18,919 nucleotides of DNA from a virus (Duplodnaviria; Heunggongvirae; Uroviricota; Caudoviricetes), in IMG/VR virus record IMGVR_UViG_2563366942_000019. One strand, written 5' to 3'. Position numbers and translations under genes: made by a program. The notes beneath the pieces are model-generated. The model searched no databases. It was not told where the DNA came from and saw only the letters and a program-made list of their open reading frames with translations. Shown piece by piece: positions 1 to 18,238 of this stretch; the stretch's first letter is position 1; each line of letters opens with the position of its first letter.

Positions 1-471
1 GTGTTATTGGCATTTAGTCAGTTAACGAAGCCGATTGATCATTTGTATCGGGAATTGCAATTTGCACTGCGTGAAGCGGTAGGTACGCGTACGCTGGATG
101 AGTTGCTGGAAGATAAACAAGTCATTGATGACGTTGTCAGCGAACAGGTGAAATCGCGTATGTTGCCATTTGGTATGGAGATTGCTTCATTAGGGGTGAA
201 AGATATCGTCCTGCCTGGCGATATGAAAAATATCCTTGCGCAGCTGGTTGAGGCGGAGAAATCCGCGCAGGCCAATGTGATTCGTCGACGTGAAGAAACG
301 GCAGCGACGCGTTCGTTACTCAATACCGCTAAAGTCATGGAAAACAACCCGGTGGCGTTACGCTTAAAAGAACTGGAAACGCTGGAGAGAGTGGCTGAGC
401 GGATCGATAACATCTCTGTATTTGGTGGTCTGGATCAGGTTCTGCACGGGTTAGTGAATATCAAAGGATGA
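1..471 (+). CDS. SPFH/band-7 (stomatin/prohibitin-like) domain protein, C-terminal part; 5' end lies outside the window
   Basis: ORF runs to the window edge. The translation has the alpha-helical, Glu/Ala/Arg-rich C-terminal region typical of SPFH proteins (EAEKSAQANVIRRREETAATRSLLNTAKV...ALRLKELETLERVAERI). Its stop overlaps the next start (ATGA at 468-471). Confidence 0.6.
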   Translation: MLLAFSQLTKPIDHLYRELQFALREAVGTRTLDELLEDKQVIDDVVSEQVKSRMLPFGMEIASLGVKDIVLPGDMKNILAQLVEAEKSAQANVIRRREETAATRSLLNTAKVMENNPVALRLKELETLERVAERIDNISVFGGLDQVLHGLVNIKG

Positions 472-1268
472 GTCAAATGCCATTAAATGGAGTCAGTGCT
501 GCGATGCGCGAACGGGTATCGCAGCAGTTAAAAGAAATAGAACGTCGCTATGGCGTGAAAGTGCTGTACGCCTGCGAATCAGGCAGCCGCGGCTGGGGAT
601 TTGCCTCGCCCGATAGCGACTACGATGTACGGTTTTTGTATGTCCATCCGCTGGAATGGTATCTGCGTGTAGAGTCACCGCGCGATGTTATCGAGCTGCC
701 CATCGACGACGAATTAGATGTTTCCGGTTGGGAGTGGCGTAAGGCGCTGGGATTATTGAAAGGCGCGAATCCGACGCTGATAGAATGGCTGGATTCTCCG
801 GTGGTCTATCAACAAGATGAAGAAACGATAACGGCGCTTAAGGCAATGGTCCCAATGTGGTTTTCTTCGTTGCGTGCACGCTGGCATTACTATTCGATGG
901 CGCAGAAAAACTTCCGCGGCTATTTGCAGGGCGATGAAGTTCGACTGAAAAAATACTTTTACGTGCTGCGCCCGCTGCTGGCCGTGCGCTGGGTCGAAGC
1001 GGGTAAAGGCGTGCCGCCAATGCGCTTTGCTGAGTTACTGGCAGGAAGCGAGCTTGATGCGCCGTTACGCGAAGAGATTGACGAACTGCTGGAGCGTAAA
1101 CAGCGAGCGGGGGAGGCGGAATATGGTCCGCGCCGTCCTTTGTTACATGCGTTTATTCGCGCGGAGCTGGCGCGTGGGGAAATTCCACCGATTTTACCGG
1201 ACAGTCGAGATGGAGATGTTCGGGAGCTAGATAATTTGCTGTATCAAACGGTAATGCGCCGGGCATAA
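468..1268 (+). CDS. Predicted Pol-beta-superfamily nucleotidyltransferase (minimal NTase fold with C-terminal helical domain)
   Basis: 266 aa ORF. N-terminal motif ESGSRGWGFASPDSDYDVRF matches the G[SG]...[DE]h[DE]h signature of Pol-beta-type nucleotidyltransferases. ATGA overlap with the upstream SPFH gene indicates one operon. Substrate is unknown. Confidence 0.5.
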   Translation: MSQMPLNGVSAAMRERVSQQLKEIERRYGVKVLYACESGSRGWGFASPDSDYDVRFLYVHPLEWYLRVESPRDVIELPIDDELDVSGWEWRKALGLLKGANPTLIEWLDSPVVYQQDEETITALKAMVPMWFSSLRARWHYYSMAQKNFRGYLQGDEVRLKKYFYVLRPLLAVRWVEAGKGVPPMRFAELLAGSELDAPLREEIDELLERKQRAGEAEYGPRRPLLHAFIRAELARGEIPPILPDSRDGDVRELDNLLYQTVMRRA

Positions 1269-1285
1269 AGCCCGGCGTGATTTAT
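1254..1285 (+). terminator. Stem-loop overlapping the nucleotidyltransferase stop codon, between two convergent genes; possible terminator
   Basis: cgccgggc-ataaa-gcccggcg inverted repeat followed by tgatttatt on the plus strand. The U-tract is only moderate. Confidence 0.3.
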
Positions 1286-1737
1286 TGCTGGTATTGCCAA
1301 CTGCTGACTAAAGCGTACAAGTGATTTGGAGAATAGCGCCAGCTTTCCTTCAGTTGCAGAAATTCAGCACAAAATTCACTGCAAAACAGGCGATCGCGCT
1401 GTTCTTTATTACCGATAATAATTCCTAATGCTCCGCGCCAGTCATATTTTTTGCCATCATGTTTACGGAAAAAAGTTTCCACATCCTGAAGGCTGGCCTG
1501 GAGCGGCAGCATATCCCACTTATCCGCTGGCAATGGCATTATTTTTCCGCGTACACCGCGATCGCGCAGTGATGCGGAGTAACAAAGGTAACTCTTTTCA
1601 CCATGCTTAATGGCTAATTCACAGTGGGAATAATGACCACGTGTGATTTTACGGGTAAGCCAGTCAGCCAGTCGGGCAATACCACGGTGCTCTGTTCGGC
1701 CCTTATAACAAGCGAGCCAGACAGTGGTTTTACTCAT
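1282..1737 (-). CDS. Hypothetical protein, last gene of the tail operon; weak resemblance to permuted papain-like (YaeF/YiiX, NlpC/P60-superfamily) hydrolases
   Basis: 151 aa ORF whose ATG overlaps the stop of the fibre chaperone gene (ATGA at 1734-1737). Contains His-containing motif GHYSHCELAIKHG and, C-terminal to it, CSEFCAEF, reminiscent of the His-then-Cys order and CSE motif of permuted NlpC/P60 enzymes. Assignment is from memory of motifs only. Confidence 0.45.
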   Translation of the reverse strand: MSKTTVWLACYKGRTEHRGIARLADWLTRKITRGHYSHCELAIKHGEKSYLCYSASLRDRGVRGKIMPLPADKWDMLPLQASLQDVETFFRKHDGKKYDWRGALGIIIGNKEQRDRLFCSEFCAEFLQLKESWRYSPNHLYALVSSWQYQQ

Positions 1738-2441
1738 GGTTGCCAGCCTGTTGAATAATCGTAGTCGAGCACCGCCTGAATATCGTCCAGTGCTTCCACC
1801 GCCGCGATATGGTGCTGGGCGTTTGCGAACAAGCGCATATCGTGATCCATGGTGACCGATTCAAACTGGGCAGCGATTTCGTTGGTTAACTCAATCAGAC
1901 CATTATTTTTAGTTTTCCACATTAACCCTGGCGGAATTTTTTTCTCCGCTCCCATTTTTGTGAGTGAAAGCTGTTGGATACGGCTATTTGTATCACTGTG
2001 GAAGTGATGGTTGTTGATGATGATGTAATCGGTTGTGATGGCATCGCGTTGATTTTTGATTGCAGAGTATTTCGCCTCTTTAGCATCGGTTATAGATGGT
2101 TGCCATTTTTCACCATCCCAACGTTCAAAAGAACCTGTCGGGGAAATGACTGTTACATTTTCAGGTAATTGGCCCAATTCTTGAATAATAAGCTGGCTAC
2201 CATCAACTTTGTTATAAACAGTTTGGCCTCGATGATCTTCAATAAGTCTCCATGTTTCATTCTCCCACACTGGAGTAAAACCAGGAACCTTTTCGGGAGG
2301 TGAAATTAATGTGCAATAATTTGGCAAGCCTGTATTAGGTGCAATGTATGCATCAGACTCACCGATATATTCTTGGGAGTCTTGTGAAAAATTATATACA
2401 GTTAGTATTTGAGCTTCATCGGAAAAGGTAAAAGTATTCAT
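1734..2441 (-). CDS. Tail fibre assembly chaperone (Tfa-like)
   Basis: 235 aa ORF immediately downstream of the tail fibre gene and coupled to it by an ATGA overlap (2438-2441). N-terminal region has Tfa-like features (aromatic then Gly/Pro-rich, ...[11 protein letters not shown]...). Position matches Mu U / P2 G. Confidence 0.6.
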
Positions 2442-4078
2442 GCTAGCCTCACAATATAGTTGAATGCGATATTTTTGACGGTGTTTTCGGTGTTGCCGGT
2501 ATTATTAATGGTTAGGGAGTGATTATGGGAACCAAGGGCAATTGAATGCGAATGGGTGCCAATTGAAAGTTCATGTGTATGGCTACCCAATGCGATAGTA
2601 TGTGCATGGGTACCAATGGCTGTAGTATGAGAGTGATCACCTACAGTATCGGTATTAACGTAGTCATAACGAGAGTCACCTATAGAATCAGCGGTTAGTG
2701 CATTGCCACCGTAATCAGCATCACCTTTACATGTTATTTGATGTGAATGGCCCCCTGTGCTGGTCGACGATTTACTTCCGTGATTGAACGACGATGTTGT
2801 CTTAGAACCAAGATCAGAGGCAGATGTCGTTTTGTGTCCAAAATCAAAAGATGATGTTGCCTTTGTCCCTAAATCAGTACTCGAAATACTGCCCGTATGG
2901 TTATGTGATTTAATTCCATCCAGTTCAGTAGATAATATAGCTCGCCCACTGGATGGTTTTCCTTTAATTATCCATCCGCGCATGTCAGGAATAACACCAG
3001 ATGGATATGCAATTCCCAGTTTGGGATAGGAGGCTTTATTAAATGTCTGACCTGTCATCAGAGCGTAGCCTGAAGGTATAGAATCAGATGGCCAAGGAAT
3101 AGGCATCCCTACAGGACAGCTTTCCGCAGCAATAGCCTTATCCATCGCTGCCTTAACAGCGTTCGGCGTTGCAGCTTCCGTCGTACTGGTGCTGTTGGTC
3201 GCATTATTAAGTTTCACGACCCCTTTTTGCGTCAGCGTACCGTCGGGGATACCTGTTATTTGCCCCCAGGCATGGGTATGGCTGGACGGTGCCGCAGCAA
3301 TAGCCTTATCCATCGCTGCCTTAACCGCACTTGGTGTTGCAGCTTCCGTCGTACTGGTGCTATTTGTTGTATTGTTAAGCTTAACGACTCCTTTCTGCGT
3401 CAGTGTACCATCAGGGATACCAGTAATCTGATTCCAGGCATGATTATGACTGGTGGCAGCTTTGCTATTTGCCAGGTCATATGCCGTTTTTACCGCTTTT
3501 GGCGTGGCCGCTTTGGTTTCATCATCGCTATTAGTCGCATTACTCAGCTGCGTAAAACCTTTTTGTGTCAGCGTCGCATCAGGATGATTTCGTGATTGCT
3601 GATGTGTTTTCAACGCGTCATCGACATATTCCCTGGTTGCCACAACGACTGAAGGGTCGATCAAAAGCGTCACCGCATCTGCATTGGTGACTTCCATGAC
3701 CGCGCGTATAACGATTTGCTTACTGGCCCCCGCAGGTAATCGTGGCTTATAGGTTTCCGGGAATTTACCAATAGCGACCAGCGTGCCGTCGGTATCCAGT
3801 AACCCAACTTCGCGTACATACCAGCCTCCGACTTGTTCGGGAATAATCGCTTCTGCGATAACCCAGGCCGGATTATCTGGCGCAATTTTTAATGTATTGA
3901 GCTGACCACGCCAGACCTCATGGACTACTTTGGTCTGACTTTCTGTCGGTTCGATATATTTACCATTACCGTCGCCAACTACCATAGTTTGCAGACGGAT
4001 CTGTTTTTGCTCGGCCAGTGCTGAGGCAATTTTGGCTTTGCCTGCAGCAGTTAATATTGTAAAAAATTCACTTGCCAT
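2438..4078 (-). CDS. Tail fibre protein (Mu S / P2 H-like) with internal 56-aa repeats and His-x-His C-terminal tip
   Basis: Start chosen at the internal ATG (4078-4076) giving [39 protein letters not shown], the conserved N-terminus of Mu/P2-type fibres. The track ORF extends to 4201 but would overlap the upstream gene by about 120 nt. Contains tandem fibre-repeat units ([32 protein letters not shown]) and a C-terminal HxH repeat array. Confidence 0.85.
2500..2650. repeat. Short-period coding repeat encoding five His-x-His units at the fibre C-terminus
   Basis: Translation [44 protein letters not shown], with matching nucleotide periodicity around 2520-2640. Confidence 0.6.
3128..3600. repeat. 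About 2.5 tandem copies of a 168-nt unit inside the tail fibre gene
   Basis: aatagccttatccatcgctgccttaac... recurs at 3131 and 3299 (period 168 nt = 56 codons), with a third degenerate partial copy near 3464-3600. The copies encode the repeated fibre motif. Confidence 0.7.
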
Positions 4079-4080
4079 TA

Positions 4081-4812
4081 TTACTCCGGATATACAGACA
4101 TAATTTCGGTGCTCCAGTATCCTGTGCCGACCTTCATCGGTTGGGATTGTGTTAGTCGATCGGGTTGATAAGGTAGTAGTTGAATATATTCCTCCACACA
4201 ATAACCTGTCGCTAAAAATATTCCAGATGACTGGCTGAGGCTTTCTGCAACAGGAGGCAATACTGTAATGACTTCCCCTCCTTGCATGGCACTGCCAATA
4301 ACTGGTATTGGGCTTCGATTAATAAGCCAAATAACAATGCTTTCCAGCTTTGATCGGACATTTTTATATTCATGAATTAATGTGATAAGTGCATTGAATT
4401 CATCTTCATTTAATCCTTTTTCCTCTAGTGTAATATCAACCTTAAAAAAGTAAGCCTTTCCCCCATATTCAAACCATTCTGAAATAGTTCCTGGTAGCGA
4501 AAGTATTTCCAGTACCCGCCGTACCGCCCAAATCGTTCCTTTATATTTATGCAGCTCAATGGCTTGCTTAATTAACTCGCGCTTCTCCCGCTCATCGGTG
4601 GTAAATAACCAACCTTCCAGCCCCTGAACGTGAAATTGTTCTGCAAGGGCTGGTAATGCCGAAGCATCAACCAGGTCGACCAGATAAACCATCAACGCCG
4701 TCAGATCGAGTTGGGCAAAACGCTCGGCGGCGATGTTTGCCAGAATCGAAAAACGCTCATCGCTGGCAAGCGGCGGCGGTGGCAGCAATTTATCCATCGC
4801 TGACTCCGGCAA
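4081..4812 (-). CDS. Baseplate protein, P2 gpI / Mu gp48-like
   Basis: 243 aa; N-terminal [24 protein letters not shown] matches the LLPP..S...R signature of gpI-family tail proteins. Lies between the gpJ-like and fibre genes as in Mu/P2. Start may instead be at Met6; either way it overlaps the gpJ-like stop. Confidence 0.75.
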
Positions 4813-7064: not shown

Positions 7065-8105
7065 TTACTGGCTGGTCGCTGGCCCGCGTGACACGTCGAT
7101 TTCAGTGGTATAGCCGCTGCGCACAAAACTGTGAGTAGATTTATCAATCAGCCACTGACCGGAAATCACGCCAAAATCGGTCAGTTCAATTTTATTGCCC
7201 GCCGTCAGTTCCGGGCAGCCCATCATTGTGAGCGTTCCGGTTTGCTGATATTCGTTGTGGCTGTCGAGTGCAGCGTTGGCCTTTGCCTGTGCTGCGCCAA
7301 CGTCCGTCGCCCGACTGTTCAGTTTTAGCGTGTCGGCACTGGTGCCGACTCCACGGGCAAACGGTTTTTGCTGGCTGTCGTGGGTGTAGATAACCAGTTC
7401 TTTTTTCTTACTATTTTGATGCTGTACGGTGGCGTTTTTGTAGATACGGTTAATGGTATCTTTGAAGGTGAAATGCGAAACGTCTTTGCGGTCGATCTTT
7501 TTCACAGGTGCCAGGCAGCGCAGCGTGGGTAAATGTGAAAAAATCAGCTCTTTCGTCGTCACTTTTACGGCATAACCATATTCACTGGCCAGACGTTTGA
7601 GAAATCCAACATCGGTTTCGCCGTACTGTGTCACCCGGTCAATTGTCAGAGGCTCGATTTTGCCCACCAGCTTTAGGCCGTGAGTTTGTGCGATACGGCT
7701 GGCGATAGCCGAAAGCGTCGTTTCTTCAAAGCCCTGGCTGTTACGGGTGCGCAGCGCCTGATTGACGGAAGTGGCGATGCCATCAATATTTACCGTAGAA
7801 GGTGGCGCTGAAATATCAATTTTATCAATAATATACTGACCACAATCGAGCAGCTTTTCTCCCTGATACCCCATATGCAGCGCCAGCGTATCGCCTTTGC
7901 CGGGATACCACTCTTTTATCCAGCGTCCATCTGTGTCATCCAGTGTAATTGCGATGGTATCCGACTCGTTTTTGATGCTGTCGTGGTAACTGATGCTGGT
8001 GACATAGGGTGTGATGTCATAAGTGATATCTTTATGCCCATACCAGAGGGTAAAAATGGGCGTGAGTGTGGCAAAGACGCCACCAGTTACGCTTATCTCA
8101 GCCAT
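7065..8105 (-). CDS. Baseplate hub protein, P2 gpD / Mu gp44 / T4 gp27-like
   Basis: 346 aa; position between the X-like and V-like genes and size match the gpD/late-control-D family. Confidence 0.75.
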   Translation of the reverse strand: MAEISVTGGVFATLTPIFTLWYGHKDITYDITPYVTSISYHDSIKNESDTIAITLDDTDGRWIKEWYPGKGDTLALHMGYQGEKLLDCGQYIIDKIDISAPPSTVNIDGIATSVNQALRTRNSQGFEETTLSAIASRIAQTHGLKLVGKIEPLTIDRVTQYGETDVGFLKRLASEYGYAVKVTTKELIFSHLPTLRCLAPVKKIDRKDVSHFTFKDTINRIYKNATVQHQNSKKKELVIYTHDSQQKPFARGVGTSADTLKLNSRATDVGAAQAKANAALDSHNEYQQTGTLTMMGCPELTAGNKIELTDFGVISGQWLIDKSTHSFVRSGYTTEIDVSRGPATSQ

Positions 8106-8302
8106 GGTGGGATCTCCGATAAGGTTTTATTAACGGAAATGACCGGAATAATGAGCTGAATACCGGAAGGCAGTACCGGGTAAATGGCTACATGTGGATT
8201 GGCGGCGATTATGCGTTCATAAGCCAGTGCATCACCGTAGTAATGCCATGCCAGGTTATCCCAGCGTTCGCCATCGGTGGTGATATGTTCAAGGTATCGC
8301 AT
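8093..8302 (-). CDS. Tail protein X-like (LysM-like fold)
   Basis: 69 aa; GERWDNLAWHYYGDALAYERIIAANPHVAIYPVLPSGIQLIIP fits the gpX pattern G.tld.i..ryYG......e.vl.aNP.l......LP.G..v.lP. Confidence 0.7.
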   Translation of the reverse strand: MRYLEHITTDGERWDNLAWHYYGDALAYERIIAANPHVAIYPVLPSGIQLIIPVISVNKTLSEIPPWLR

Positions 8303-9255
8303 TACCAGCTCCTGGTAATGGTTACGGCAGCAAGCTGGCTCACTGCGGGAGTGGTTTGTTGTACCGTTGTACGTGCCTGCTCAACCAACGACGTGGCTTT
8401 ATCGAACGTCGCTTCGGCGATGTCGCTGGTAATGTCGTCGAAAAGCGCCTGAGCATGGTCAACCAGCGTACTGGCGTCATTGGCGCAGTCCCGGATACCT
8501 GGCATGTTACCCAGTAAAGCTTTAATCTGCGCCGACAACGCTTTTGGTAGGCCTGCCAGCGTTTGCAGATCCATTGGCTGTTTAAACAGGGTTTCGATGG
8601 CGTCGATTGTCTTTTTCAATGACGTAATTATCTTTTCACACTTTTCTTTTAACGCTTTGGCCTCTTTAATCATTGCTTTCACTTTTGCCACCGTTTTTTT
8701 AATATCTTCAATGGATTGTGTCAGTTCATCCAGCATCTCTTTGGCCTTACGCATACCTTCTTCAATGGCGTTTAATATCTGATCAAACCAGGACTCCACC
8801 TTGTCGGGAAAATCGCTCGCCTTTTCCTCGATGTTGGGCTCCTGGGTGGTAATCGCCGGAGGTAAAAGTGGATTTTTAGGATCGCCGGTGTACTCCTGGA
8901 GCGACATCGTTCCGTTTTGGGCAATCACATTGCCCCAGGGATCGGTGTGCTGGTGGGTGGCGGTTAGCTCCGTAATCACAAACCAGCCGCGATAATCGCC
9001 ATTGCCAAATACCAGTGCCATCGCCTTGTGAGCAAGCATGGCTTCACGCAGTCGGTTCAGCTCTGTTGTGGGCTGGCAAAACTGGCTGTGCAGGGAAAAT
9101 TCCAGCGCCAGCATATCCAGCTTATCGCCAATAAACTGCACGCCGGGTTTGCCTTCTATACGGGCATGTGTGGCGTAATCCACGCCCATTGTGCTTTTAA
9201 AGCCGTCCCAGAATGTGACAACCTTAAATTCAATCTCTCCTAAAACGGCATACAT
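8302..9255 (-). CDS. Tail protein with gpU-like N-terminal domain and Lys/Glu-rich coiled-coil C-terminal extension (Mu gp43/N-like)
   Basis: 317 aa; N-terminus MYAVLGEIEFKVV... resembles P2 gpU. The C-terminal ~180 aa are heptad-like and K/E/A-rich (EEGMRKAKEMLDELTQSIEDIKKTVAKVKAMIKEAKALKEKCEKIITSLKK...). ATGA overlap with the tape-measure stop at 9255. Confidence 0.55.
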   Translation of the reverse strand: MYAVLGEIEFKVVTFWDGFKSTMGVDYATHARIEGKPGVQFIGDKLDMLALEFSLHSQFCQPTTELNRLREAMLAHKAMALVFGNGDYRGWFVITELTATHQHTDPWGNVIAQNGTMSLQEYTGDPKNPLLPPAITTQEPNIEEKASDFPDKVESWFDQILNAIEEGMRKAKEMLDELTQSIEDIKKTVAKVKAMIKEAKALKEKCEKIITSLKKTIDAIETLFKQPMDLQTLAGLPKALSAQIKALLGNMPGIRDCANDASTLVDHAQALFDDITSDIAEATFDKATSLVEQARTTVQQTTPAVSQLAAVTITRSW

Positions 9256-16480: not shown

Positions 16481-17701
16481 TCAGTACGCCATATTCAGTT
16501 TCCCATAGTGGAACATAACTCCCAGTTTAAAGCGTTCCCGGTTTCGGTATCCCCTGGCCTTTATCCTCAGCAGTCTGATCTTGCTGTTCAGCGCCTCCGC
16601 ATTTCCATTCGAGACGCGATGACGCATTGCATTCAGTATTCCGTATAACCGTTTTTTAATGGTTTTCGCTGCGTTTTTCATCATCGGCACATCACATTCA
16701 GACGCCAGCGATATCCACTGCAACCAGTCATTCCTGCGTTCTGTGCTCCAGGGGCGATCCCAGATATTTTTTGCCAGCTCTTTCAGTGTCCAGCACTGGC
16801 TTGTCTGTTGCATCTGTTCCCGCAACCACATCAGCTTTTCCTGCCGGGACTCAGTCATCCATTTGTCGCTGTACTGCCACAGGAAGCGGGTACCTTTGGC
16901 CTGACGACGACTTTCAACAGGGAGGTGCGGATGTTCATTCTGGCGGGTTTTATCAACCACTTCGCCCAGTTGCTTCGCCACATGGAAGCGATCGAAGGCG
17001 ATTTTCTCGACCGCATTGGGTAAATGGATACGCGCTGCTCTTATATAGCCCGCATTCATGTCCATCGACAGTGTTTTGATGGCCAACAACTGACTGTCAG
17101 TAAGCGAACGGAGATAGCTGGCAAGACTCTCTGTGCCACGATCATCGGTTAATGCCAGTGCCCGCCCGTCGCGATCAGATACCACGGTTATATACCTATG
17201 CCCTTTTTTAAAGGCGACTTCGTCTACATTCATATGACGCACTGATAAAGGCTTTTTAATCCGCGACAGGCCTCGCTTAACCGCGCGGGTCATGATGCCG
17301 TCAACGGCATTCCAGCTAAGTTTAAGTTGTTTTCTGACCGCATCAACGGTGCTGATTTTAAGCCATGAGAGCACGAACGATTCGAACAGCAGAGTGTACC
17401 GACTGCCGGAACCTGCCCACGGTACAGGCAGAGTCTGGCAGCCATGCTCCGGGCACATAACGCGGGGAACATCGGCTTCTACTAATGTCATGAACTGGCA
17501 GGTATCAAGGTGGCGCCATTTACGATGTCGGTGATCGTGAACAGAACAGGATTTCCTGCAGGTCGGACAGGTTAACTGAGTATTTTCAGCAATTCCGACT
17601 GTAACAGTAACGGAACCTGCATTTTCATCGAGGGTAAGGGATTTAACCTGCCATGGTGCAGTCAGGTTAAGGATATGGGCATAGAGGGATTTTTCGTCCA
17701 T
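16481..17701 (-). CDS. ISL3-family transposase
   Basis: 406 aa; N-terminal zinc-finger-like CPTCRKSC...CPEHGC, then the DDE region with the ISL3-type motif NVDEVAFKKGHRYITVVSD. Confidence 0.85.
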   Translation of the reverse strand: MDEKSLYAHILNLTAPWQVKSLTLDENAGSVTVTVGIAENTQLTCPTCRKSCSVHDHRHRKWRHLDTCQFMTLVEADVPRVMCPEHGCQTLPVPWAGSGSRYTLLFESFVLSWLKISTVDAVRKQLKLSWNAVDGIMTRAVKRGLSRIKKPLSVRHMNVDEVAFKKGHRYITVVSDRDGRALALTDDRGTESLASYLRSLTDSQLLAIKTLSMDMNAGYIRAARIHLPNAVEKIAFDRFHVAKQLGEVVDKTRQNEHPHLPVESRRQAKGTRFLWQYSDKWMTESRQEKLMWLREQMQQTSQCWTLKELAKNIWDRPWSTERRNDWLQWISLASECDVPMMKNAAKTIKKRLYGILNAMRHRVSNGNAEALNSKIRLLRIKARGYRNRERFKLGVMFHYGKLNMAY

Positions 17702-17719
17702 ATAATTTCATTCTGAAGC

Positions 17720-18238
17720 TTACTTTAAACTGATATTATTATTTTTTGCCCACTTTCTTAATCTTCCATTAGCGTTGGCGTAAGGCGAAGATGTGTTAAA
17801 TGAGATCATTCTCCCCATCGTCCATTTTGTGTACCATGGTCTTCCATACAAAATATCATCGGTACGATCATTAATAAGGTTCACAATCTCATTTTTTACA
17901 GTATGAAGTTCAGCTACTAACAACTCATAACTTAACTCACTGTAATCTGAGTAAAATTTTTGAGCAAGAAGGCCAAGCTGATTCCATTTATAGCCAGTTT
18001 CCGGAAAATCGACAGGCAGACCTTTAGCATCAGAAGCGATCCACTTTACAACAAGAGCATTCCATCCAAGCAGATACGAAACGAGATCACGAACACTCAT
18101 CTCCGTTCCTTTGGCGTGTCCGTCCATTGATTTATCTGAAGTAATTTCTGGTGGGATTGTGTTGAGGTAACTAATTAATTTACTAAAATTTTTATCAATA
18201 GCTAAAAGCAGTTCAGCTTTTGTTTGCGGCACACTCAT
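17720..18238 (-). CDS. ClbS/DfsB-family (DUF1706) four-helix-bundle protein; passenger gene within the IS
   Basis: 172 aa; motifs DGHAKGTEMSVRDLVSYLLGW, FPETGYKWNQLG and RPWYTKWTMGRMISFNTSSPY recalled as characteristic of the ClbS/DfsB family. Good RBS (gaggga). Located inside the IS inverted repeats, upstream of and co-oriented with the transposase. Confidence 0.6.
   Translation of the reverse strand: MSVPQTKAELLLAIDKNFSKLISYLNTIPPEITSDKSMDGHAKGTEMSVRDLVSYLLGWNALVVKWIASDAKGLPVDFPETGYKWNQLGLLAQKFYSDYSELSYELLVAELHTVKNEIVNLINDRTDDILYGRPWYTKWTMGRMISFNTSSPYANANGRLRKWAKNNNISLK

Follow-up and report, generated by a model that had tools for sequence, protein, structure and literature searches.

A slipin-rlaP gene pair beside an Escherichia coli phage-tail cluster as the probable remnant of a second, Band-7-type Rtc RNA-repair operon

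What are a Band-7/SPFH gene and a nucleotidyltransferase (NTase) gene doing at the edge of a phage-tail cluster? The question is raised by positions 1-1268 of IMG/VR virus record IMGVR_UViG_2563366942_000019, a stretch of 18,919 nucleotides referred to here as the window (its numbering is used throughout, with negative numbers to the left of base 1). An earlier note on this DNA took the two genes for a translationally coupled pair that could be either ordinary chromosomal flank or cargo of the tail element. The window was retrieved, at 100% identity and with about 20 kb of flank on each side (region L001, 41.8 kb), from the chromosome of Escherichia coli MS 21-1, where the gene order is rluF, yjbD, slipin (the SPFH gene, a pseudogene), NTase, a 16-kb phage-tail cluster on the opposite strand, lysC and pgi. 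The analysis reported here leads us to regard the pair, with a probability of roughly 80%, as chromosomal flank and as what Escherichia has kept of a further Rtc RNA-repair operon, one of the Band-7 type. The pair is an RNA-repair module of a known kind, described mostly by computation, in an unusual reduced form. The features on which the argument turns are as follows.

near -1093 to -1059: enhancer-like repeats TTATC..GATAA..CGATA..AGATA, candidate activator sites
-971 to -956 (L001 19029-19044): putative sigma-54 promoter TGGCACGcttcTCGCA, a motif match
-945 to -786 (L001 19055-19214), plus strand: predicted tRNA-like leader RNA, located with a covariance model
-656 (656 nt left of the window), plus strand: ATG of slipin
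1 to 471, plus strand: 3' fragment of slipin, open from base 1, codons 220-375 and TGA stop (469-471)
462 to 467, plus strand: Shine-Dalgarno sequence AAAGGA for rlaP, inside the last slipin codons
468 to 471, plus strand: ATGA, an incidental overlap of ATG 468 with the slipin stop TGA 469-471
477 to 1268, plus strand: rlaP, Pol-beta NTase gene (PF10127), 263 aa, intact
1255 to 1279, plus strand: terminator-like hairpin of 10 pairs, 8 of them G-C, with a loop of 5 and the tail ATTTATTGCT

The downstream gene encodes a member of Pfam family PF10127, RlaP ("RNA repair pathway DNA polymerase beta family"), with an E-value of 2.9e-96 and a score of 322.4 bits (the cut-off being 23). Residues 13-259 cover profile positions 1-248 of 249, and phrog_14344, "nucleotidyltransferase", matches the same protein at 4.7e-122. 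The Pol-beta-type NTase recognized in the earlier note was thus confirmed by Pfam. Comparison with 24 orthologues shows that the window protein has all of their invariant residues, among them G36 S37, D48, D50 and D81; the residues named would make up the Pol-beta catalytic signature, the three catalytic aspartates being assigned by position only. No solved structure matched RlaP by sequence, and NCBIfam has no family for slipin or for the NTase. In Pseudomonas, two RlaP proteins with genes located between rtcB and rtcA extend RNA 3'-OH ends by one or two nucleoside monophosphates, with a preference for damaged RNAs, and RlaP has been proposed to restore nucleotides lost to ribotoxins that trim after cleavage (bioRxiv 10.64898/2025.12.29.696909).

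The upstream gene was likewise identified correctly at the outset. Pfam Band_7/SPFH (PF01145) matches the window fragment at 1.8e-11 and an intact allele at 3.9e-26. The open reading frame seen in the window corresponds to the 3'-terminal 156 codons of a gene of 375 codons (L001 19344-20471). In MS 21-1, codon 215 of this gene is TAG in place of TGG (W215stop; L001 19986-19988, that is, 12-14 nt left of window base 1). The same lesion is present in AF14, an unrelated blood isolate from the UK, and is therefore not an assembly error. Slipin is a pseudogene in MS 21-1, where PGAP also annotates the internal stop, and the nonsense codon is a recent lesion. A 124-aa open reading frame on the minus strand (39-413) lies inside slipin and appeared "conserved" by tblastn in all loci compared; it was rejected as a gene, its conservation being a by-product of the conserved slipin sequence on the sense strand.

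The two genes had been described as sharing an ATGA stop/start overlap, taken as the sign of translational coupling. ATG 468 does overlap the slipin stop, and reading from it would give an open reading frame of 266 aa (468-1268), but it is probably not where rlaP begins. AAAGGA is separated by 9 nt from ATG 477 and by 0 nt from ATG 468. In all close orthologues the upstream gene ends with AAAGGATAA, followed by 5 nt and an ATG, the E. coli version being AAAGGATGAgtcaaATG; this junction (AAAGGA, stop, 5 nt, ATG) is kept whether slipin or rtcB precedes rlaP. Citrobacter, Klebsiella and Enterobacter orthologues have ATAA at the ATGA position, hence no ATG, and PGAP places the start at 477. Since the conserved junction, the Shine-Dalgarno spacing and the annotation agree, ATG 477 is the probable start and ATG 468 an unlikely one. 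The ATGA can be viewed as a by-product of the slipin stop being TGA after GGA. What survives of the coupling claim is that the genes lie on the same strand, 5 nt apart and tightly linked, a gap that makes co-transcription and some degree of coupling likely. Both ATGA overlaps and terminator hairpins are frequent in bacterial operons, and neither is statistically remarkable here.

A homology search with E. coli slipin returned near-identical E. coli proteins only; a second search was seeded from Ideonella. The comparison set consisted of 80 loci, one per species, carrying slipin orthologues at 45-97% identity, in which rtc genes were placed by tblastn and tallied by hand from the resulting table. 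A divergent rtcR gene lies just upstream of the slipin orthologue in 52 of these loci, rtcB immediately 3' of it in 42, and rlaP, following either rtcB or slipin, in 37. Usually rlaP follows rtcB, as in Enterobacter, Phytobacter, Franconibacter, Providencia, Erwinia and Burkholderia; in Escherichia, Citrobacter, Klebsiella, Mangrovibacter, Brenneria, Lonsdalea and Hafnia it follows slipin directly. Only in Escherichia, among the 80 loci, does a slipin-rlaP pair occur with neither rtcR nor rtcB. The linkage of slipin with rtcR, rtcB, rlaP and a tRNA-like RNA (see below) spans two proteobacterial classes. One SPFH gene inside an rtc locus has been named PaFlo8, in Pseudomonas aeruginosa (PMC13086221). 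The P. aeruginosa locus (rtcR/PaFlo8-rtcB-rlaP-rtcA) and others of its type, a kind of operon predicted by Burroughs and Aravind (2016), comprise the same protein families in the same order and have a sigma-54 promoter of the same type; they carry rtcR, rtcB and rtcA in cis, whereas the Escherichia locus has none of the three and its SPFH gene is broken in MS 21-1.

The earlier note had suggested inspecting the DNA left of position 1 for partner genes. This DNA contains the 5' part of slipin preceded by a leader, a promoter and a set of repeats, but no rtcR or rtcB. The putative sigma-54 promoter, TGGCACGcttcTCGCA, is the single match to its motif in the 41.8-kb region, where 0.04 would be expected by chance, and 46 of the 80 loci have the motif TGGCACG-N4-TNGCA upstream of slipin. 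The slipin promoter is near-identical to the -24/-12 promoter of the K-12 rtcBA operon (TTCTGGCACGacggTTGCAAT upstream of slipin, TTCTGGCACGcttcTCGCAAT in K-12). Further upstream, the composite of enhancer-like repeats stands 122-145 nt before the promoter in 30 loci, that of E. coli among them, with no further occurrence in 2.08 Mb; since the pattern was built from the very sequences in which it was counted, it is the specificity alone that is informative. In other genera the repeats abut the rtcR start codon. The published RtcR papers that we consulted yielded no RtcR binding site.

A leader of about 290 nt, which has the tRNA T-loop GGTTCGATTCC, separates the promoter from slipin. The tRNA T-arm motif GGTTCGANTCC is present in 74 of the 80 loci and has one match in the 41.8-kb region (0.08 expected). 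Alignment of the first 160 nt of the leader from 15 Enterobacteriaceae gave a six-helix consensus in which 96% of cells pair, as against 36-50% with slid partners, and six pairs show compensatory changes. A covariance model built from this alignment matched 32 loci, that of MS 21-1 among them, once each and always immediately 5' of slipin; it found none within the window and none in the K-12 rtc locus. At the same position in distant loci, ARAGORN calls tRNAs with odd or unreadable anticodons and the Rfam tRNA model scores 41-59 bits (58.7 and 51.3 among them). A candidate cloverleaf, closed by 5' UGAR with YUCA after the T-arm, competes with a CUGA/UCAG helix plus a hairpin following the T-arm, both of which have compensatory support. 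RtcB is encoded beside a Band-7 protein and a "band 7-associated tRNA" according to Burroughs and Aravind (2016), as that work is cited in bioRxiv 10.1101/312249. The E. coli leader may represent a degenerate version of this RNA.

Two observations on the relatives of the leader may be added. In Lampropedia, a tRNA match of 41.5 bits upstream of slipin (locus L052, 5591-5717) overlaps a sub-threshold match to YrlA (32.7 bits, E 0.003), which hints that the Band-7-associated RNA and YrlA may be related. In several distant loci of beta- and gammaproteobacteria, slipin is preceded not only by the odd tRNA-like element but also by an array of 3-13 tRNA genes of ordinary appearance (L056, 1855-5637; L062, 2607-4653; L083, 4199-5600; L071, 5178-5633).

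The chromosomal position of the pair tells of its origin. In seven genera (Citrobacter, Klebsiella, Enterobacter, Franconibacter, Phytobacter [P. ursingii], Siccibacter and Yokenella) the orthologous operon lies between yjbD and lysC-pgi, and rlaP stands directly before lysC, without a tail cluster, in 15 species other than E. coli from these genera. Because the relatives occupy the same yjbD-lysC position, the E. coli pair can be understood as the reduced descendant of an ancestral enterobacterial locus. Comparison of the sequences indicates that the ancestral form had rtcR divergent from a sigma-54 promoter, tRNA-like RNA, slipin, rtcB and rlaP, all between yjbD and lysC, as relatives still do, and that the Escherichia locus lost rtcR and rtcB by deletion but retained the promoter, the enhancer-like repeats, the leader RNA, both genes of the pair and the terminator. 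Slipin and RtcB both end in (I/V)KG-stop, encoded by the same DNA, AAAGGATAA, which is followed by 5 nt and the rlaP ATG (window 455-480; comparison loci L010, L013 and L015-L021, near 8340-8370). Given this shared DNA, the slipin-rlaP arrangement could have arisen by deletion of rtcB between short repeats.

Within E. coli, distribution was scored in 5,426 complete genomes. The pair matched 1,630 of them (30%; 1,621 at coverage of at least 80%) and is missing from 3,796; K-12 is without it and has a 252-bp gap between yjbD and lysC. In the majority island type (e.g. O104:H4 and O145) a convergent zeta-toxin-family gene, and no tail cluster, lies between the NTase gene and lysC. This gene encodes a P-loop kinase of 308 aa (PF06414, E 1e-40; locus L002, O104:H4, 7304-8230; also in L003 and L006). 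The RlaP authors call for an RNA 3'-kinase yet to be discovered; the zeta-family gene was considered as a conserved partner of the module and rejected, as among the 80 loci it accompanies slipin only in Escherichia. Alleles of slipin and rlaP differ widely, with synonymous divergence (dS) of 0.2-0.5 within E. coli and up to 0.8 against Escherichia sp. (window 1-1268 versus L002, L003, L004 and L006). Tail-linked alleles are at least 95% identical to the window and the remainder 90-95%. The high dS and the separate tail-linked class suggest either old allelic lineages or import by recombination.

Despite the loss of rtcR and rtcB in cis, the pair has been under strong purifying selection in its reduced form, since the ratio of nonsynonymous to synonymous divergence (dN/dS) among five Escherichia alleles devoid of both genes is 0.03-0.09 for slipin and 0.05-0.08 for rlaP (dS 0.06-0.8). 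Activation and ligation would have to come in trans, because neither gene adjoins the pair in Escherichia. Sources for both exist in the species as a whole: a separate rtcR-rtcB(A) locus between malT and glpR is found in 5,425 of the 5,426 genomes, with at least 80% coverage in 4,839. This separate site and the yjbD-lysC site of the slipin pair are the respective chromosomal homes of the two systems.

A number of points weigh against the reading of the pair as a reduced Rtc operon. No rtcR or rtcB gene adjoins it in any Escherichia locus examined, yjbD standing at the rtcR position, and no rtcB or other RNA ligase gene was found within 20 kb on either side of rlaP in MS 21-1. Identity between the RtcR of E. 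coli and the slipin-adjacent RtcR proteins of other genera is no higher than 61-63%. MS 21-1 has one single-nucleotide polymorphism in the repeat pattern (whose derivation calls for the caution given above), and the region upstream of K-12 rtcBA resembles the repeats only in part. Known Band-7 operons also have a tRNA-like element upstream of the SPFH gene, but that of E. coli is degenerate, with a T-stem of 3-4 bp; neither ARAGORN nor Rfam (E up to 1) calls a tRNA in the E. coli upstream region, and the single-sequence fold of the leader is no better than that of shuffled sequences (z -0.49), so that the leader RNA is argued from the comparative data. RlaP leaves a 3'-OH whereas RtcB needs a 3'-phosphate, a gap raised by the RlaP authors themselves (bioRxiv 10.64898/2025.12.29.696909). 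Finally, slipin is dead in MS 21-1 and 70% of E. coli genomes do without the pair.

Several of these points would also follow if the locus were a decaying relic, its promoter stranded without an activator after the loss of rtcR and rtcB and the pair in the course of disappearing from Escherichia and functionless at least in MS 21-1. The lack of activator and ligase in cis, the absence of the pair from K-12 and most other genomes, the slipin nonsense codon shared by MS 21-1 and AF14, and a frameshift in the neighbouring zeta-family gene of O145 would all be in keeping with decay. The low dN/dS, maintained across deeply diverged Escherichia alleles (dS 0.2-0.8) that lack rtcR and rtcB, argues otherwise, as do the intact promoter, leader RNA and rlaP of MS 21-1 and the availability of RtcR and RtcB in trans in most E. 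coli (by the species-level count). We consider general decay possible but not probable and a silent relic plausible in MS 21-1 itself, for which partial loss of function is likely.

The relation of the pair to the phage-derived genes can be examined at the boundary between them. The earlier note had the pair converging on the end of the tail operon across a hairpin, and this was upheld: the next gene is on the minus strand and the G+C-rich hairpin lies between.

1282 to 1737, minus strand: boundary gene (orf151), 151 aa, of a phage "moron" family (phrog_1128, E 2.4e-58), the last gene of the tail operon

The start of orf151 overlaps by ATGA (1734-1737, minus strand) the stop of a DUF4376 tail-fibre-assembly-like gene and for this reason orf151 is assigned to the tail operon; it is absent from the approximately 1,430 E. 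coli genomes in which the pair occurs without a tail cluster. The core of the hairpin pairs CGCCGGGC (1257-1264) with GCCCGGCG (1270-1277) around the loop ATAAA, in which lies the rlaP stop TAA (1266-1268). It was scored as a terminator on the plus strand only and is kept in E. coli islands devoid of the tail cluster; Rfam matches to SorX on it were dismissed as due to chance. The sequence common to both island types stops right after the hairpin, at about 1278-1280. The tail element has its boundary at about 1280, just past the rlaP terminator, and the left edge of the window is ordinary chromosome.

Beyond orf151 the cluster runs through tail-fibre genes, baseplate, tape measure, tube, sheath, lysis genes, an insertion sequence, ClbS and Mor. 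The tail-fibre position (2438-4201) contains an open reading frame of 546/587 aa, for which PGAP has, in the same genome, two incomplete "phage tail protein" pseudogenes; ST648 has an intact 536-aa gene there. The ISL3-family ISEc53 transposase gene and the ClbS/DfsB-family gene (16481-18238) separate the lysis genes from the Mor activator gene. In Phytobacter massiliensis (locus L010, 9205-13119), homologues of orf151, tail fibre, gpI, gpJ and gpW (56-93% identity) follow rlaP in the order and orientation of the window, with an insertion resembling a repetitive extragenic palindrome in the intergenic hairpin.

The question of flank or cargo can now be answered: the pair is an old chromosomal neighbour of the tail cluster, ordinary flank and not its cargo. 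About 1,430 E. coli genomes carry it without the tail cluster; its position between yjbD and lysC is the one seen in the seven other genera, and the orthologous operon at this site implies that the tail element did not bring the pair. The junction of pair and tail is found in 196 E. coli genomes, the sheath and tube genes in 196-200 (tail cluster at coverage of at least 80%: 196), while the pair itself also occurs where the element is absent, as a moron carried by it would not. Nor are these universally conserved core genes, the finding that the earlier note thought would tell against its proposal; present in 30% of genomes, they are nevertheless found with or without the tail element. The tail cluster, inserted at a later time between rlaP and lysC, is not their functional partner.

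One could still suppose that the RNA-repair module protects, or otherwise serves, the producing cell when the tailocin-like cluster is induced. The 196 tail-cluster genomes equal in number the 196 with the pair-tail junction, the cluster thus appearing always beside the pair; P. massiliensis has the same juxtaposition of rlaP, orf151 and tail fibre-baseplate genes, with a homologous junction; and prophage induction in Salmonella can generate an RtcR-activating signal (PMC9879122). Such a partnership is nonetheless quite improbable. About 88% of the pair-carrying E. coli genomes have no tail cluster, and the 15 enterobacterial species mentioned above have rlaP directly before lysC. The two units converge and are split by a terminator belonging to the rlaP side, and the constant adjacency is explained by a single insertion spread by recombination through the flanks.

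Pol-beta NTases form the catalytic core of CBASS and MNT/HEPN modules, and the pair lies at a variable chromosomal spot beside phage-derived genes, which together might suggest that the tail element carries the pair as cargo with a part in anti-phage defence or signalling, the NTase being of CD-NTase or MNT type and the SPFH protein its effector or sensor. The signalling or toxin-antitoxin role that the earlier note had in mind for the NTase was not sustained, however: profile classification, which that note had recommended, gave RlaP alone, neither CD-NTase nor MNT/KNTase; PADLOC had no match for either protein; no HEPN, effector or cyclase-partner gene is present in the locus; and orthologues reside inside rtc operons and are distributed independently of the tail cluster. 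CD-NTases of CBASS, MNT/HEPN enzymes and KNTases share with RlaP the Pol-beta fold and the GS...DxD...D signature, but their acceptor is a second NTP, a protein or an antibiotic, whereas that of RlaP is the RNA 3' end. A defence module is scarcely credible on this evidence. Equally hard to credit is a classical membrane slipin, organizing microdomains or regulating a protease, next to an unrelated NTase: stomatin, HflK/C and QmcA are indeed the best sequence and fold matches for residues ~150-370, but slipin lacks any hydrophobic segment (the highest Kyte-Doolittle mean over 19 residues is 1.13), has no NfeD gene beside it (its neighbours are yjbD and rlaP) and carries an extra N-terminal part of ~150 residues, and its gene is linked to the rtc genes and the tRNA-like RNA as described above. 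These features distinguish it from SPFH-NfeD operons such as E. coli QmcA-YbbJ, with which it has the SPFH domain in common, and speak against the membrane-microdomain role that had been attributed to it.

If slipin is not a membrane protein, a different architecture has to be considered. Its AlphaFold model, of medium confidence (pLDDT 76, pTM 0.52), predicts a beta-rich N-terminal part, the extra ~150 residues mentioned above, followed by the SPFH domain and long C-terminal helices. Foldseek searches with this model found stomatin (E 8e-14), HflK/C and prohibitin at about 1e-13 to 1e-10, and the major vault protein at 1e-9 with a query-normalized TM-score of at most 0.42; the vault matches have root-mean-square deviations of 15-18 Å and may be due for the most part to the SPFH "shoulder" and helix. 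Stomatin, HflK/C, prohibitin and the major vault protein all build large rings or cages, so that slipin may reasonably be pictured as a soluble cage. Like the vault, with its major vault protein and vault RNA, it would be a soluble protein next to the gene of a small structured RNA.

A comparison with other Rtc systems is instructive in this respect. The Salmonella locus (rtcR/rsr-yrlBA-rtcBA) likewise has a scaffold protein and a tRNA-like RNA, Ro60 and YrlA, ahead of the repair enzymes. In the rtc systems of K-12 (rtcR/rtcBA) and Salmonella, the enzymes are ligase and cyclase and the scaffold, in Salmonella, is a Ro60/TROVE protein; in the slipin locus the corresponding places would be taken by an NTase and an SPFH protein.

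The following scheme for the reduced Rtc operon is built on the observed homology, synteny, promoter motif, covariation, selection and distribution; activation in trans, RNA binding by slipin and the substrates in vivo are what we infer. RNA damage would yield tRNA fragments ending in 2',3'-cyclic phosphate, a type of fragment by which RtcR is activated (PMC7790460). RtcR made from the separate rtcR/rtcBA locus would respond to these fragments and switch on, in trans, the sigma-54 promoter that lies some 970 nt before window base 1. The transcript would comprise the tRNA-like leader, slipin and rlaP, and end at the hairpin at 1255-1279. RlaP would add one or two nucleotides to trimmed 3'-OH ends, and RtcB, again in trans, would ligate them to give a working tRNA. 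Soluble slipin would form a stomatin- or vault-like ring or cage with the tRNA-like RNA bound in it as cofactor, in the manner of Ro60 and YrlA. In MS 21-1, with slipin knocked out, only RlaP could be made, probably in reduced amounts through polarity. For two parts of this scheme, activation by RtcR in trans and the scaffold role of slipin, we judge the chances to be about even.

It is also conceivable that the tRNA-like RNA, the soluble Band-7 protein and RlaP amount to a self-sufficient unit and not a mere accessory of RtcB. The idea derives from the long purifying selection on the pair without ligase or activator in cis, and we regard it as rather doubtful. If true, the trio could form a small vault-like ribonucleoprotein cage with a role of its own, for instance as a tRNA mimic that decoys or senses anticodon nucleases, or in restoring nucleotides to trimmed tRNA ends. 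The RtcR response would then include it, through action in trans, in about 30% of E. coli strains, K-12 not among them.

For E. coli, the reading of the pair as the remnant of a Band-7-type Rtc operon means that about 30% of complete genomes (O104:H4, O145 and ST648 among them, though not K-12) contain a second sigma-54 promoter of the Rtc type, which would drive a tRNA-like RNA, a soluble SPFH protein and RlaP, whereas current annotation has only a "slipin family protein" and a "nucleotidyltransferase domain-containing protein" at this place. Pair-carrying E. coli would be a tractable host in which to probe the functions of the Band-7 protein and its RNA.

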